Shown here piece after piece: positions 2,159 to 5,457 of a stretch of DNA of 6,070 nucleotides. The stretch covers positions 1 to 6,070 of the forward strand of contig JACOYC010000007.1 of assembly GCA_016182015.1 (NCBI GenBank), written 5' to 3'. The position numbers and the translations under genes were made by a program. A model generated the notes under the pieces. It saw only the letters and a list, made by a program, of their open reading frames with translations, did not search any database and was not told the origin of the DNA. How positions within the stretch are numbered: the first letter of the stretch is position 1; each line of letters begins with the position of its first letter. The DNA is from Nanobdellati archaeon. GTDB lineage: Archaea > Nanobdellota > Nanobdellia > UBA10117.

Positions 2159-2175
2159 CTAATATGAAATATTAG
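2159..2175 (-). terminator. AT-rich hairpin just 3' of tRNA-Asp (possible 3' processing or termination element)
   Basis: CTAATAT-GAA-ATATTAG forms a perfect 7-bp inverted repeat abutting the tRNA-Asp discriminator base (2177). Confidence 0.3.
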
Positions 2176-2176
2176 G

Positions 2177-2461
2177 CGCCTGAGCCGAGATTCGAACTCG
2201 GGTCTGAACCGTTCTGCATGACAACCAAAGTACTTCAGCCGATCGCAGATCGGCTTGCCTTTTCTTTGGGTTGCCGACAAAATCCATTTTGGATTTTGCG
2301 GACACATCTGAACTTTGTTCAGATTGTGCCACGACACCTTTCTTTTTACGACGCAAGAAAAATCCGAAGATTTTTCTGCGCCCAGAAAATGCTTTGCATT
2401 TTCTTGGGAAAGAAAGGGGTTGTGTGACAGGGTTCTATCCTAACCGCTAGACTACTCAGGC
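2177..2461 (-). tRNA. tRNA-Asp (anticodon GUC), intron-containing
   Basis: Exons 2461-2425 and 2211-2177 join to 72 nt: GCCUGAG-UA-GUCU-AGCGGUUA-GGAU-A-GAACC-CUGUCAC-GGUUC-AGAC-CCGAG-UUCGAAU-CUCGG-CUCAGGC-G. Acceptor stem 7/7, T stem 5/5, anticodon stem 5/5; the D stem has two G.U pairs. The 3' trailer is CCU, so CCA is not fully encoded. Confidence 0.9.
2212..2424 (-). other. tRNA-Asp intron, 213 nt, canonical position 37/38
   Basis: C32UGU35 pairs with the intron 3' GCAG. The 3' bulge is AA|C38 and the 5' bulge is C36A37|C. An ACAACC/GGUUGU helix closes the intron, with an extra CAU opposite the 5' bulge, so the BHB is relaxed. The interior is filled with 6-13 bp hairpins and holds no plausible ORF. 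Confidence 0.8.
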
Positions 2462-2492: not shown

Positions 2493-2512
2493 GTTGAGTC
2501 CCGCCCTCAGGA

Positions 2513-2663
2513 TTTTCTTTATCATCCTTTTTCCTTAGCGCCATCGTAGATGGCGCACGGGGGAATCAGGGTGAGCGTCCCAATCGAACGAAGTTCGATG
2601 TGCGGCAAAATCCATTGGATTTTGATTGCAACCTGAAGGGGGCAGAGCCCCCTTCGGGTCCGT
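2513..2663 (-). other. tRNA-Tyr intron 2, ~151 nt, inside the T-loop (about 59/60)
   Basis: The T arm is split: UCAGG-UUCAAA ends at 2664 and U-CCUGA-GGGCGGG-A resumes at 2512. A-runs on both sides make the boundary ambiguous by up to ~4 nt. The interior has the hairpins GAAGGGGGC-TCT-GCCCCCTTC, CAAAATCC-AAT-GGATTTTG, ATCGAAC-TTC-GTTCGAT and GCGCCAT-CTACG-ATGGCGC. I could not draw a clean BHB by eye. Confidence 0.65.
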
Positions 2664-2685
2664 TTTGAACCTGAAACCTTCCGGG

Positions 2686-2723
2686 TTCTGAGCGCATATT
2701 GCTTGCCTAGCGGCAAGTGCTGT
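2686..2723 (-). other. tRNA-Tyr intron 1, 38 nt, at or near 37/38
   Basis: Sense sequence is ACAGCACTTGCCGCTAGGCAAGCAATATGCGCTCAGAA, with an internal hairpin CTTGCC-GCTA-GGCAAG. The 3' end UCAG pairs with C32UG (U35.U mismatch), followed by the bulge AA|C38. The boundary is ambiguous by +/-1 nt. Confidence 0.7.
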
Positions 2724-2783
2724 CTACAGCCAGACGCTCTACCAGGTTGAGCTAGGGCGGGATAGATAGTGCTGCATATTTGG

Positions 2784-2806: not shown

Positions 2807-4213
2807 TTATTCCTTCGTAGAAATCTTTCCAAGCACAGAAACAGTGTTGGATGCAACTGCCTTTGCCTTGCCGTTCTCTGTCTTGAATTTTACGTGCGCG
2901 GCAGGCAACCTAATCGCCCCAACAATACCAAGAGAGGTTCTCAAATCATAAGTCAAAACCCTTTCCTCGCCAGGATATAAAACATCAAACTTCCAGCTTA
3001 GCCTGATGTGCCCGCCTTCCTTCTTTATCACGCTCGGGTTCATTGTACCATAATCGCTGCCCGGTTTTAGCGGCGTGGCAATCACATCTGTAACAGTAAC
3101 GTTCGGCACCTGCTTGCCCGCCAGTGATTTTACAACAAGCTTAACCTTCAGGCTCTTTGGCCCTTTTATTACTGATTTCGTAATGCTAAACTCGGCGCCG
3201 TAATATTTTGATAATGTATAAACGCCGGCGATGAGTAATATTAAAACAACGGCCAGCCATGCGTAAGATATTGTGTAAGCCATGGTTGTGCTCTGGCCGG
3301 GAGAAAGCGAATACTGCCAGCCAGCCACAAATCCGCCGCTGTCACCGCTTAATTTCTCTGCTTCGGGTTTCGAAAAAAAGAACGCGCGCTGCCAAGACGG
3401 AAGCAAAACTGTATGTGTGCCAACCGCATCGATATTGCCTTTGTTTGTCAGCGTGATTGTATATTTTGTGCCGAGGAATGCTCCGGAAGTATCTGTTTTG
3501 GAAACCACATTTTCGGAAGACAAAACCTGAAACCGCTTGCTCTGCTGAGAAACAAGTTTGCCGGCCGAATAAATCGAAACCACATTCTTGTAGTTGCCTG
3601 GCTTTACGTCAGAGTCTATTGTTATGTCTTTCTGCAGAACCAGTTTGGCCTCGCCGGAGGCCAGCTTGCCAATTGTAAAGTCAACCGGCTGGAACAAATC
3701 GCTGCTCAACTTGCCTGTCAGGCCTGCCGCTTCATCCTTGCCGGAATTTTTAACGATCAGATTTATTTTGTAATCGCCAGGCTTTATCTTACTCTCCAAA
3801 TCTATTGAAGAATCAATATGCGGCGGTTCTGTGAGGACAGTTATCTTAACCAGCACCGATGTCTGCACTTTTGGGTTATTGCAGGCCTTTGCAGTCACTT
3901 CAATCGCGTAGGTGCCGGCATAAACATCTGCCGGCGGCGTGATTCTAAGTTCGGCAGATCTTGCGGAATTTGCAGGTATATCTAAAATATAATTATCAAA
4001 GTAGGCTGTCCCCCAGCCTGGCGCCGAAAGGCAGAATCTGTCGAACTTTGCCTGATTATTACCGACTGTAATGCCGTATTTTGCAGAATCTGTGTAAGAA
4101 ACAGCACCGACCACTGCATTTTGCGTCATAACAACATCAGAACCTGCATGCGCGATGGGCAAACCGAGAACAAGTAACAAAAGACTAATGATGATTATGT
4201 GTGGCCAGCGCAT
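2807..4213 (-). CDS. Secreted, membrane-anchored protein with CARDB/Ig-like beta-rich repeats
   Basis: The track ORF 2807..4222 starts at a TTG; the first ATG is at 4213-4211 (MRWPHIIIISLLLLVLGLPIAHA|GS), which reads as a classical signal peptide. Segments such as RITPPADVYAGTYAIEVTAKA, INLIVKNSGKDEAAGLTGKL and YTITLTNKGNIDAVG resemble CARDB/NEW3-type Ig-fold repeats. One TM helix lies at track residues ~316-337 (YTISYAWLAVVLILLIAGVYTL), followed by a K-rich segment and a ~125-aa C-terminal beta-rich domain. Confidence 0.85.
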   Translation of the reverse strand: MRWPHIIIISLLLLVLGLPIAHAGSDVVMTQNAVVGAVSYTDSAKYGITVGNNQAKFDRFCLSAPGWGTAYFDNYILDIPANSARSAELRITPPADVYAGTYAIEVTAKACNNPKVQTSVLVKITVLTEPPHIDSSIDLESKIKPGDYKINLIVKNSGKDEAAGLTGKLSSDLFQPVDFTIGKLASGEAKLVLQKDITIDSDVKPGNYKNVVSIYSAGKLVSQQSKRFQVLSSENVVSKTDTSGAFLGTKYTITLTNKGNIDAVGTHTVLLPSWQRAFFFSKPEAEKLSGDSGGFVAGWQYSLSPGQSTTMAYTISYAWLAVVLILLIAGVYTLSKYYGAEFSITKSVIKGPKSLKVKLVVKSLAGKQVPNVTVTDVIATPLKPGSDYGTMNPSVIKKEGGHIRLSWKFDVLYPGEERVLTYDLRTSLGIVGAIRLPAAHVKFKTENGKAKAVASNTVSVLGKISTKE

Positions 4214-4242
4214 GTTTATCAATTATGTTAGTGAATAATTAG

Positions 4243-4250: not shown

Positions 4251-4307
4251 TGTTTCTAGATCGCATAATGAGCAATCCACAATGATATATGGTGAGGCTG
4301 CGCAGAT

Positions 4308-4464
4308 TTGTTCCGCACATCGGGATTTGCGGGATTGTTAAATCCCGCTGTTTTTCTTTTTGGGTTCCCAGGAGCCTTTTTCTTTCCAGAGCCGAATGAA
4401 ATTCGGCTTGGCCAAGAAAAATGCCGAAGCATTTTTCTCTGGTTTTAAAAGAAAAAGGGTGCTG
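4308..4464 (-). other. tRNA-Pro intron 2, ~157 nt, inside the T-loop (56-60)
   Basis: CGCAG-UUCAA ends at 4465 and AU-CUGCG-CAGCCUC-A-CCA resumes at 4307. Read without splicing, the local T-loop would be AACAAAU, which lacks U54 and U55. The exact boundary is ambiguous by ~2 nt. It contains the three-way-junction module at 4375-4458. Confidence 0.65.
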
Positions 4465-4484
4465 TTGAACTGCGGTCACACCCA

Positions 4485-4583
4485 TTCTGGTAAAGACATC
4501 TTTTGTGCGATTGAAAATCGCACTTTTCTTTCTTTAGACGCCCAGGAGCGTTTCTTTCTTTTTAAAAGAAAGAAAAGCTGCTG
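4485..4583 (-). other. tRNA-Pro intron 1, 99 nt, at or near 37/38
   Basis: The sense strand starts CAGCAGC and ends CCAGAA. CCAG pairs with U33GG35 (A32.G mismatch), followed by the bulge AA|U38. It contains CTTTTCTTTCTTT...AAAGAAAGAAAAG (+ 4523-4577) and the hairpin GTGCGATT-GAA-AATCGCAC (+ 4505-4523). The boundary is ambiguous by +/-1 nt. Confidence 0.65.
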
Positions 4584-4638
4584 CCCCATGGGCGTAGCCT
4601 ACCAAGCTAGCCGACAGCCCCGCTAAGAATTTATTTAT

Positions 4639-4663
4639 AGCTTTAAAAGTTCTTTTACTATTT
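4639..4663. repeat. 25-bp exact direct repeat, copy A (tRNA-Pro promoter region)
   Basis: AGCTTTAAAAGTTCTTTTACTATTT is identical to 4751-4775. Confidence 0.9.
4641..4648 (-). promoter_or_regulatory. Candidate TATA box of tRNA-Pro
   Basis: Sense TTTTAAAG lies 20-27 nt upstream of G1 (4621), slightly closer than for the other two tRNAs. It sits inside the 25-bp repeat that duplicates the adk 3' end. Confidence 0.4.
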
Positions 4664-4720
4664 GTACAGCCCCCTTTCTTTGGGAAAGAAAGGTGCTCTA
4701 CGAAACCACCAAAGAAACCT

Positions 4721-4739
4721 GTGCGATATTCTATCGCAC
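4721..4739 (-). terminator. Hairpin 8 nt downstream of the adk stop (terminator-like, or a cassette of the intron hairpin family)
   Basis: GTGCGATA-TTC-TATCGCAC has a perfect 8-bp stem. In the adk sense it is followed by AGGTTTCTTTGG. The same stem occurs in tRNA-Pro intron 1 (4505-4523). Confidence 0.4.
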
Positions 4740-4746
4740 TAAATTT

Positions 4747-5457
4747 TTACAGCTTTAAAAGTTCTTTTACTATTTTTTCAGCATCTGCTTTTACGCTACT
4801 AACGTCTTTTTCCGCATTGACTGGTCTAAACGCGGCGGAATATGTTCTGCGCATGCTTTCCACCATTGGCCATGTCTTCTTATCATACTCACGTATCGCA
4901 TTCGCAAACATGTCGTAATTAACATCTTCCTGCCTGATGTAAAGCCCGCCCCCGCAGGCATCACATCTGTCCGCAGTTTTTGGCGGAGAAAACTTAACAT
5001 GATAGACTAAACCGCATGGCCTGCAGCTCCTTCTTCCCTTGGCCCGCTCAAACAATGTATCGTCATTCGCAATGTCAAGGTAAAGCACTGCATCAAAATC
5101 AATCTCCCATTTCATATGTCCGTTCACGCGCTCGAACATCCTTTCGAGAAAATCCAGCTGTCCAGTAGTCCTTGGGTAGCCAACCCAAAAAGCAACCGAG
5201 CCCGGCTTCATTGCAAAAAATTGATGCTCGACAAGGGAATTCATGTACGGATCCGGAGTAAGGCTTCTGTCTGCATCAAAATGCTCTGCGACTTTTCCAA
5301 GCAAAGTCCCGTCGCGCTTGCCTGCCCGCAGCAAATTTCCGGTTGCGATATGCTGCGAGTCCGGTATTTGTTTGAGTAAGTGCTGCAGAACAGTGTCTTT
5401 GCCCGAGTAAACAGCGCCAATTATAACCACATTCTTAACTGGTTTAAGTTCAGCCAC
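4747..5457 (-). CDS. adk: Adenylate kinase, long form with a four-Cys zinc LID
   Basis: Motifs: GAVYSGKDT (P-loop; compare GxPGxGKGT), HIATGNLLRA (compare IStGdlLRa), GYPRTTGQ (compare GfPRTxxQ), LID GRRSCRPCGLVYHVKFSPPKTADRCDACGGGLYIRQEDV (CxxC...CxxC), and IREYDKKTWPMV. The start is GTG at 5457; the next in-frame Met is residue 72, after the P-loop. GAGGT (+ 5463-5467) lies 5 nt upstream. Confidence 0.9.
   Translation of the reverse strand: MAELKPVKNVVIIGAVYSGKDTVLQHLLKQIPDSQHIATGNLLRAGKRDGTLLGKVAEHFDADRSLTPDPYMNSLVEHQFFAMKPGSVAFWVGYPRTTGQLDFLERMFERVNGHMKWEIDFDAVLYLDIANDDTLFERAKGRRSCRPCGLVYHVKFSPPKTADRCDACGGGLYIRQEDVNYDMFANAIREYDKKTWPMVESMRRTYSAAFRPVNAEKDVSSVKADAEKIVKELLKL
4751..4775. repeat. 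25-bp exact direct repeat, copy B (last codons of adk)
   Basis: AGCTTTAAAAGTTCTTTTACTATTT is identical to 4639-4663. Here it encodes the adk C-terminus (...KIVKELLKL). Confidence 0.9.

Follow-up and report, generated by a model that had tools for sequence, protein, structure and literature searches.

Transposed bulge-helix-bulge (BHB) tRNA introns have been described in the Thermoproteales (Fujishima et al. 2010, summarised in PMC4033280), and increased disruption of tRNA genes, together with unpredicted (“missing”) tRNAs, has been noted in DPANN archaea (PMC5829648). Here we describe a family of long tRNA introns from DPANN archaea and an 81-nucleotide (nt) RNA module that one member carries at positions 2337-2417 of a 6,070-nt stretch of DNA (hereafter the window) from a Nanobdellati archaeon (GenBank assembly GCA_016182015.1, contig JACOYC010000007.1). 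Judged by their sequences, the 81 nt probably form the P1 arm of a long BHB-type intron that folds by itself, has a proposed triplex core and an optional hairpin cassette, and belongs to a family that has multiplied in DPANN tRNA genes. The family resembles the Thermoproteales introns, as far as the summary describes them, in that similar sequences occupy many tRNA species, at canonical and noncanonical sites and several to a gene. It differs in its hosts, which are Woesearchaeota/Nanoarchaeota, and in its multihelix core with a covarying third strand, its optional cassettes, and its copies outside tRNA genes. The introns of the Thermoproteales are also much shorter than the 90 to 215 nt of the present family.

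Major-groove RNA triplexes are known from the MALAT1 and PAN elements for nuclear expression (ENEs), telomerase RNA, and the SAM-II and preQ1 riboswitches, and the long antiparallel purine type is described as contested for RNA (PMC7583470). The third strand proposed for the intron family resembles those of the known triplexes in that each of its bases corresponds to a pair of a Watson-Crick helix within one molecule and in that it presumably has a stabilizing or architectural role. It differs in type: the known RNA triplexes are of the pyrimidine motif (U·A-U, C+·G-C) and parallel, whereas that of the family would be purine, antiparallel, and 8 to 10 triples long. The tRNA core holds three purine-purine-pyrimidine triples (9-23-12, 45-10-25, and 46-22-13), which are natural RNA major-groove triples of the same A·A-U and G·G-C kinds; they are isolated, whereas a continuous run of 8 to 10 steps is proposed here. 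H-DNA is an intramolecular purine-motif DNA triplex at homopurine mirror repeats and needs only a mirror repeat in a duplex. The family shares with H-DNA the homopurine mirror repeat, the A·A-T/G·G-C code, and the antiparallel third strand; unlike H-DNA, the family strand also carries the pyrimidine tract, so that hairpin and third strand could come from one strand. RNA rather than H-DNA is indicated because the surrounding helices carry G-U pairs.

The 81-nt module and its host gene

ARAGORN reported no tRNA genes in the raw window. The minus strand carries three (Asp, Tyr, and Pro), interrupted by five introns in total; standard annotation would score the genome as lacking all three tRNAs. 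Joining 2461..2425 to 2211..2175 (minus strand) gave a clean 74-nt tRNA-Asp(gtc) in ARAGORN, which confirmed the placement of the module within a tRNA-Asp intron by a preliminary description of this DNA. Because the spliced exons give a clean tRNA, the intron is assigned to 2424..2212 (213 nt), at the canonical position 37/38 of a tRNA-Asp(GTC) gene at 2177..2461 (minus strand; exon 1, 2461..2425; exon 2, 2211..2177). At another locus, L044, the same tRNA-Asp has a 98-nt simple family intron at the identical site.

The module had been described as a 9-bp helix, with plus-strand arms CCTTTCTTT (2337-2345) and AAAGAAAGG (2409-2417), closing two adjacent 12-bp hairpins with one bulge each. The arms were read as stated, and the fold was exact on the minus strand. 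In the tRNA sense, hairpin 1 (2408..2381) is CCCAAGAAAAUGC-AAA-GCAUUUUCUGGG and hairpin 2 (2380..2352) is CGCAGAAAAAUC-UUCG-GAUUUUUCUUGCG, each of 12 bp with one bulged nucleotide, and the UUCG tetraloop does belong to the tRNA sense. The minimum free energy (MFE) of the module was -34.0 kcal/mol, compared with -14.8 ± 3.1 for 200 dinucleotide shuffles, none of which was as good (z = -6.15); a companion module at 4375-4458 had an MFE of -37.0 kcal/mol (z = -6.47, by shuffling). A discrete structured unit rather than a chance fold had been predicted, and 12 distinct two-hairpin modules with compensatory stem changes were found in other tRNA introns. No Rfam family matched the module: when the whole window was searched with cmscan at E <= 1, the sole match was a chance one to IRES_Cx43 (18.7 bits, against a gathering score of 70). 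Three-way-junction ribozymes such as the hammerhead were rejected, as no Rfam covariance model for them matched in the window.

Size and distribution of the intron family

A hairpin search pattern of the AGAAAAAU-UUCG type, run on GTDB genomes, matched eight DPANN loci in five Woesearchaeota/Nanoarchaeota genome bins, and two of the loci (L006 and L013) had two matches side by side. At the pattern loci, the hairpin pair always lay within a longer conserved element inside tRNA genes. A pattern for the core of this element, RAAASGCUCCYGGGMRYCYAAA, matched 82 metagenome stretches representing 78 distinct contexts, mainly from groundwater and sediment, and had no matches in viral contigs. Chance pattern matches (L005, L007, L012, L014-L023 [bacteria], L040, L058, and L076/L077) were set aside. 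When 549 kb of fetched loci were searched with a covariance model built from 38 distinct cores, 166 matches were obtained. About 125 were full-length copies in the sense orientation, and a single locus held as many as seven. Further copies of the kind that the preliminary description had called for were thus obtained by both the model and the patterns.

The family introns are 90 to 215 nt long and of the BHB type, and they occur in Woesearchaeota/Nanoarchaeota bins and groundwater metagenomes. The tRNAs called by ARAGORN after in silico splicing included those for Glu, Asp, Gly, Asn, Pro, and Ser, and the junctions followed nt 15 (D-loop), 23, 37, and 59 (T-loop); the core was also seen in tRNAs for Thr, Lys, and others. 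One core was therefore found across different tRNA species and positions, as expected of a mobile tRNA intron family, and the intron copies always shared the orientation of the host tRNA. In the open-access literature, no description was found of long conserved DPANN tRNA introns, of the family core, or of a mirror-repeat intron triplex. The family is best described as a putatively mobile BHB tRNA intron whose structural core appears new; mobility is suggested by the distribution of its sequences. A family model would recover many of the “missing” DPANN tRNAs.

Core architecture and splice sites

From the 5' splice site, family members read C-R-G-C-A-K-C, P1 (a pyrimidine tract Y, a loop, and a purine tract R1), and G-C-U-C-C-Y-G; these are followed by the P2 5' strand G-G-M-R-Y-C-Y, a purine tract J, one or more variable P3 hairpins, the P2 3' strand, a 4-nt H', AA, and the 3' splice site. 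P1 is a helix of 8 to 12 U-A/C-G bp with its purines all on one strand, that is, a homopurine-homopyrimidine helix, and it reaches outward to the first intron nucleotide. In this P1 extension, covariation links the R of CRG to the Y of CYG (GC, 8; AU, 6; GU, 1). Among 38 distinct sequences, the 15 pairs of P1 and its extension were 95.4% paired with 62 double-change cells, and none of 500 shuffles was as good. Support for P2 was moderate (Fisher p = 0.0015). An earlier reading of h' as an AGC/GCU pairing with the 3' end was replaced by the covariation-supported P1 extension.

Three triples occur at the base of P1 (position 0; 2416/2338/2268 in the window), namely (C,G,C), (U,C,U), and (U,G,U). 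The base on the J side thus follows that of the pyrimidine strand, and a U-C mismatch in P1 is retained by one subfamily. Y is preceded by GCAGC[C/U] and J by GCAYC[C/U], which form parallel repeats that are nearly identical.

In the tRNA-Asp intron, all parts of which are on the minus strand, the P1 pyrimidine strand lies at 2417..2409 and R1 at 2345..2337, with UCGUAAA following hairpin 2 (which ends at 2352). The 5' strand of the P1 extension is intron nt 1-7, CACAACC (2418..2424), which in the pre-tRNA MFE fold pairs with 2336..2330 (UGUCGUG) with two mismatches; the 3' strand (2330..2336) is assigned from the same fold and from family covariation. This extension has diverged from the family consensus, where the homologous CRGCAGC/GCUCCYG covaries, with its pairing kept. 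By analogy with the family, the P2 5' strand is read as GGCAACC (2269..2275), pairing with 2226..2220 (GGUUGUC). It is followed by the J tract AAAGAAAAGG (2258..2267), which mirrors the P1 purine strand and is the proposed third strand, and by the P3 hairpin AGCCGAUC-UGC-GAUCGGCU (2237..2255), assigned from the fold; the position of P3 varies across the family. The 3' end of the intron (2212..2226) consists of the P2 3' strand (2226..2220), an AU linker, H' GCAG (2217..2214), and AA before the splice site. Read from the sequence, H' pairs with the anticodon-loop CUGU at 2430..2427.

The splice sites follow a simple rule: upstream of the final two bases of the exon, four bases pair with four bases of the intron, which are followed by AA and the 3' cut. 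This 4-bp helix H is CUGU/GCAG in tRNA-Asp and GUUC/GAAC in the T-loop intron of tRNA-Pro, and the rule yielded clean tRNAs at about 20 other loci (ARAGORN after in silico splicing). Removal of the introns restored canonical tRNAs for Asp, Pro, and Tyr in the window and at those loci, as expected of BHB tRNA introns, and the family introns are predicted to be spliced. BHB introns are cut by the splicing endonuclease EndA, while RtcB joins the exons and circularizes the intron, and the canonical motif has a 4-bp helix between two 3-nt bulges. A 3' bulge, xAA|N, is present. The 5' site abuts a three-way junction formed with the P1 extension and P2 instead of a simple bulge, and the BHB motif is therefore a relaxed one.

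The tRNA-Trp intron of Haloferax, which carries a C/D box small RNA (sRNA), is likewise a long structured tRNA intron with a recognizable RNA module. The C box RUGAUGA is absent from the introns of the window, where the sole RTGATGA lies at 4188-4194 (plus strand), outside the introns, and an intron-borne C/D box sRNA was rejected for lack of a C box. Unlike the Haloferax intron, the family shows no guide complementarity to the host tRNA beyond the 4-nt H, and it occupies many tRNAs at many positions.

Purine tract J mirrors P1

J does not copy R1 and is not complementary to it. Its sequence is that of R1 in reverse, in a register fixed by the P1 base, with A at the U-A pairs of P1 and G at the C-G pairs. 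Examples are R1 AAAGAAAAAGG with J AAAAAGAAAG and R1 GAAGAGAAAGG with J AAAGAGAAGG; in the tRNA-Pro T-loop intron, R1 AAAGAAAAAGG is accompanied by J AAAAAGAAAAA. The (Y,R1,J) triples were almost exclusively (U,A,A) or (C,G,G), with 40 CGG, 21 UAA, and 1 other at position 4; 45 UAA, 16 CGG, and 1 other at position 6; and 27 CGG, 32 UAA, and 2 others at position 8. The mirror relation of J to R1 held for 558 of 586 cells, compared with 434 ± 9.5 (maximum, 474) when J was shuffled among introns and with 490 of 586 for a direct copy at its best offset. Taken as parallel Y(i)-J(i) pairs, the tracts were 99.3% complementary with 44 double-change cells, and complementarity was 61 to 64% when they were slid by 1 to 3 columns. 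A model-based alignment of 80 distinct copies showed J in agreement at 599 of 618 cells, and at least 8 haplotypes were fully concordant. No consistent Watson-Crick partner of J was found downstream, and J as a direct copy or as an alternative Watson-Crick pairing was rejected on the cell counts, the register test, and the lack of such a partner.

A strong constraint acts jointly on P1, its extension, and J. The pattern of J is that of the antiparallel purine-motif code (A·A-U, G·G-C) expected of a third strand. An ENE-like arrangement was not found: the tRNA-sense strand has one pyrimidine and two purine tracts, and by sequence logic U·A-U triples are possible only on the complementary strand. 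We tentatively suggest, as a plausible reading of somewhat under even weight, that the family holds a natural, maintained purine-motif RNA triplex of 8 to 10 A·A-U/G·G-C triples that serves as the folding clamp of a mobile intron. If true, this would be the first long RNA triplex of the disputed type, and it would explain splicing from any tRNA position; the introns also offer a natural RNA of about 100 nt in which purine-motif triplexes in RNA could be tested.

Hairpin cassettes in P1

Simple members have the form Y-UUUGCGG-R1, and cassette members the form Y-U-[hairpin 1][hairpin 2]-UUGCGG-R1. A P1-loop cassette of about 57 nt was present in about 18 of about 95 distinct members, and in about 80% of members P1 has a loop of just 3 to 7 nt. 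These results change how the 81-nt module is delimited. Its description as a discrete domain holds for recurrence and fails for autonomy, since the 9-bp closing helix is the intron stem P1, and the boundary drawn around it does not stand, as P1 covaries with J outside 2337-2417. The unit worth describing is the whole intron family rather than the 81 nt. In this family, introns interrupt tRNA genes at several positions, their ends are predicted to be tied by P1, P2, and the 4-bp exon helix, and the cassette is optional. The earlier suggestion that the hairpins are not needed for splicing is in keeping with this, because most family members lack them and they are plausibly dispensable.

All 12 distinct cassettes fold as two hairpins, with at least seven upper-stem sequences in slot 1 and at least five in slot 2. 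Their geometry is conserved: a 3-bp base is followed by a single bulged nucleotide, which lies on the 5' arm in hairpin 1 and on the 3' arm in hairpin 2. In hairpin 2 the bulge is conserved and compensatory changes occur at 6 of 13 pairs; the MAFFT alignment of hairpin 1 was too poor for clean pair counts. The similarity of the two tRNA-Asp hairpins had been read as an internal duplication. The resemblance is not general, because elsewhere the slots are filled by unrelated hairpins, such as GCCGAAU/AUUCGGC, GCAAACC/GGUUUGC, and GGAAAAUUG/CAAUUUUCC.

The tRNA-Asp arm at 2337..2417 (minus strand), comprising P1 and the twin-hairpin cassette, is assigned from its fold and z-score, from P1 covariation in the family, and from a cassette shared with other loci: the 57 nt are identical in L011 (tRNA-Glu D-loop), L024, and L009 (T-loop), whose intron backbones have diverged. 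At about 2880-2940 of L009, the same hairpin as that at 2352-2380 of the window has the loop CGAA instead of UUCG, and the GCCGAAU hairpin has the loop GAA or UUC, depending on the slot. Such loop flips with unchanged stems hint at DNA-level palindrome dynamics. A second inserted hairpin pair (2277..2330, minus strand) sits between the P1 extension and P2 of the tRNA-Asp intron. Its first hairpin (2330..2300) is GGCAC-AAUCUGAAC-AAA-GUUCAGAU-GUGUCC, and the other (2299..2277) is GCAAAAUCCA-AAA-UGGAUUUUGU. L102 and L105 have hairpins of the same two types at this place, where the stems show compensatory changes and GCA/GGCA repeats flank the pair, and further hairpin pairs occur on P3 tips. The cassette is most likely a selfish or neutral expansion.

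Copies outside tRNA genes

A diverged, free-standing family copy was detected in the window at 4664..4745 (plus strand; 19.2 bits, E = 8e-4 with the covariance model), with P1 at 4671-4693, J at 4711-4717, and P3 at 4720-4740, antisense to the tRNA genes. It is flanked by 37-nt direct repeats at 4634-4670 and 4746-4782 that are 92% identical. The repeat at 4746-4782 is the last 12 codons plus the stop codon of adk, and the adk 3' end has therefore been duplicated around the element. The repeat at 4634-4670 also supplies a TATA-like box upstream of tRNA-Pro.

A near-identical core (CAGCAGCCUUUCUUUCGAAAGAAAGGCUCCUGGGAAUCCAAAGAAAAC...) was seen in the 60% GC archaeal contigs L042, L065, L070, and L106. 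In the first three, a tRNA gene (Gln, Leu) on the opposite strand lies immediately upstream of the core, and in L042 and L065 a duplicated tRNA 3' part brackets the core; L106 has an approximately 50-nt direct repeat on either side of the core, and no tRNA was seen there. A TATA box lies upstream in L065, and a T6 run directly follows the P2 3' strand in L065 and L070. From these features, the GC-rich copies look like a free-standing small-RNA gene with a leader antisense to a tRNA 3' end. Other copies (L102, 8195-8312 [+] and 10090-10310 [-]; L081, about 9455-9560) are inserted at the palindrome TGAAACTAGTTTCA, and a copy of this palindrome at the element's 3' end pairs with the 5' flank. Single occurrences of the palindrome were seen in several other loci and, in L102, within or at the end of a gene for a winged-helix regulator. 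The family represents a large, well-resolved spread of a protein-spliced intron, and its variants, subfamilies, and free-standing copies make that spread testable.

Proposed mechanism and alternative explanations

In the proposed mechanism, J would lie antiparallel to R1 in the groove of P1, forming a purine-motif triplex of 8 to 10 triples. The 7-bp P2 would run alongside the 8-bp P1 extension, so that J would enter P1 at its base, and the P1-J triplex together with P2 would make a compact, self-contained scaffold holding both splice sites together. This scaffold would offer the splicing endonuclease a relaxed BHB whatever the position in the host tRNA, and its proposed independence of the host site would account for the tolerance and spread of the introns in D-, anticodon, and T-loops. 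Since the cassette lies in the apical loop of P1, it would be past the end of the triplex, in a place where additional RNA may be harmless. Candidate routes to new copies are reverse splicing with reverse transcription, recombination, and DNA-level insertion.

Several points weigh against this reading, the whole of which is drawn from DNA sequence. Purine-motif triplexes with RNA strands are disputed in vitro (PMC7583470). The mirror symmetry also gives a canonical, parallel U·A-U/C+·G-C triplex on the complementary strand, and a triplex could therefore act in antisense RNA or single-stranded DNA; the G-U pairs indicate that the helices are selected on the sense strand, and the strand that forms a triplex is not thereby settled. 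The tRNA-Asp tract is symmetric, which makes J of this intron alone uninformative, and the AAAG of this J has an alternative partner in CUUU at 2230..2227, with which it would lengthen P2. Because the copies are related, the cell counts overstate the number of independent events. Support for P2 is only moderate, and an ungapped comparison of own with other P2 strands gave no clear signal. Moreover, the 5' splice site lies at a three-way junction instead of a textbook 3-nt bulge, the orientation of the cassette loop (UUCG versus CGAA) points to DNA-level processes, and core copies are also found outside tRNA genes.

Several alternatives were considered. The 81-nt unit could be read as a miniature inverted-repeat transposable element (MITE) with the 9-bp helix as terminal inverted repeats, for which there is the perfect 9-bp repeat, the palindromic interior, and the similar unit at 4375-4458. 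This was rejected and is now very improbable: the supposed termini occur, covarying with J, in many members without hairpins; no target-site duplication was found beside 2337/2417; and the helix continues outward as the P1 extension. MITEs and REP-like (repetitive extragenic palindromic) elements are miniature palindromic insertion elements, and the cassette shares with them its repeated hairpin units of about 57 nt, its presence or absence at a site, its two orientations, and its identity in diverged contexts. It differs in showing no target-site duplication in the P1 loop and no known transposase, and in having been found only at helix tips and junctions of structured RNA. That the cassette by itself is a mobile DNA element, a miniature palindromic insertion in intron loops with selection for harmless tips and no RNA function, is a possibility that we rate as less likely than the proposed self-folding intron, though worth serious consideration. 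Cassettes are present or absent among otherwise homologous introns, they can be identical at 57 of 57 positions in introns with diverged backbones, and hairpin types are shared between slots in both orientations, with UUCG/CGAA loop flips. Similar pairs are found at the P1/P2 junction (with GCA/GGCA repeats) and at P3 tips, and the base of the pair is quasi-palindromic, with CCAGAG...CUUGG followed by CCAAG...CUCUGG. Neither a target-site duplication at the P1 loop nor a transposase or other vehicle is known, the core pattern was not found in viral contigs, and the conserved base and bulge geometry looks like selection on the folded strand. This explanation overlaps the proposal of a self-folding intron, from which it differs solely in how the cassette spreads.

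A further explanation places the conserved features in DNA, with the mirror and inverted repeats folding into an intramolecular triplex or hairpin in the single-stranded DNA of a transposon whose tRNA copies survive through splicing. Purine-motif triplexes are well established for DNA and disputed for RNA, and free-standing copies lie between 25- to 40-nt direct repeats of the 3' end of a neighbouring gene; copies outside tRNA genes sit at a palindromic site, and near-identical cores occur in genomes of 37% and 60% GC. We nevertheless consider it unlikely, as the G-U pairs of P2, P1, and the hairpins exist on the sense strand only, intron copies are always in the tRNA orientation, and the first intron nucleotide and the last four are tied to the splice sites and exon by complementarity, not by duplication. 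The GC-rich free-standing copies, with a sense TATA box and a T6 run, also suggest transcription. Less likely still is a function of the bulged hairpins as a platform, either a pseudo-twofold site for a dimeric protein or an element for the stability or dimerization of an excised circular intron. The pair is pseudosymmetric, its bulge positions are kept despite differing stems, its folds are very stable, and UUCG or GNRA-like loops are frequent; against these stand the absence of the cassette from about 80% of the family, loop sequences that are free and even inverted, and the lack of any conserved single-stranded motif, C/D box, or Rfam match.

Other genes of the window and its relatives

The tRNA-Pro(GGG) gene at 4290..4621 (minus strand) has two family introns, as determined with ARAGORN after removal of the T-loop intron and with the covariance model, which gave 71.5 bits at 4583-4525 and 27.9 to 38.7 bits at 4351-4426. 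Intron 1 (4583..4485, minus strand; 99 nt, position 37/38) has a simple P1 and J at 4535..4524. Intron 2 (4464..4308, minus strand; 157 nt, T-loop) holds the companion module at 4375-4458 and has J at 4361..4351. A parse of this gene with three introns was rejected because CGCUCCUGGGCG is intron core, not exon.

The tRNA-Tyr(GTA) gene at 2499..2761 (minus strand) was resolved by splicing trials with ARAGORN and has an anticodon-loop intron of about 38 nt and a T-loop intron of about 150 nt. The T-loop intron (2515-2672, minus strand) is of a different type, without a pyrimidine/purine P1 and without J, and consists of a string of hairpins: GAAGGGGGC-UCU-GCCCCCUUC, CAAAAUCCA-A-UGGAUUUUG, AUCGAAC-UUCG-UUCGAU, and GCGCCAUC-UAC-GAUGGCGC. 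By repeat analysis of the window, the hairpin CAAAAUCCA-A-UGGAUUUUG is of the same type as that at 2299..2277 in the tRNA-Asp intron. No EndA gene was found in the window.

An orthologous tRNA-Pro(GGG) gene lies at 3120-3250 of L004, whose adk is 75% identical to that of the window. Its two introns match those of the window in position, measure about 13 and 41 nt, and lack both P1/J and the hairpin module. The exons of the two genes differ at many positions with compensatory changes, and tRNA evolution in this lineage is therefore fast; exon sequences were rejected as search keys because they are too different even at 75% adk identity. A synteny search via adk found no adk relatives among the GTDB genomes, and the exact adk protein of the window occurs only on short contigs.

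The regions 221-2061 and 2807-4222 (minus strand) hold three further open reading frames (ORFs), of which those of 506 and 107 amino acids (aa) had no Pfam match. The third, of 471 aa, had sub-threshold hits only, to the cell-surface repeat domains NPCBM_assoc, CARDB, and DUF11, and its ortholog directly follows adk in two relatives.

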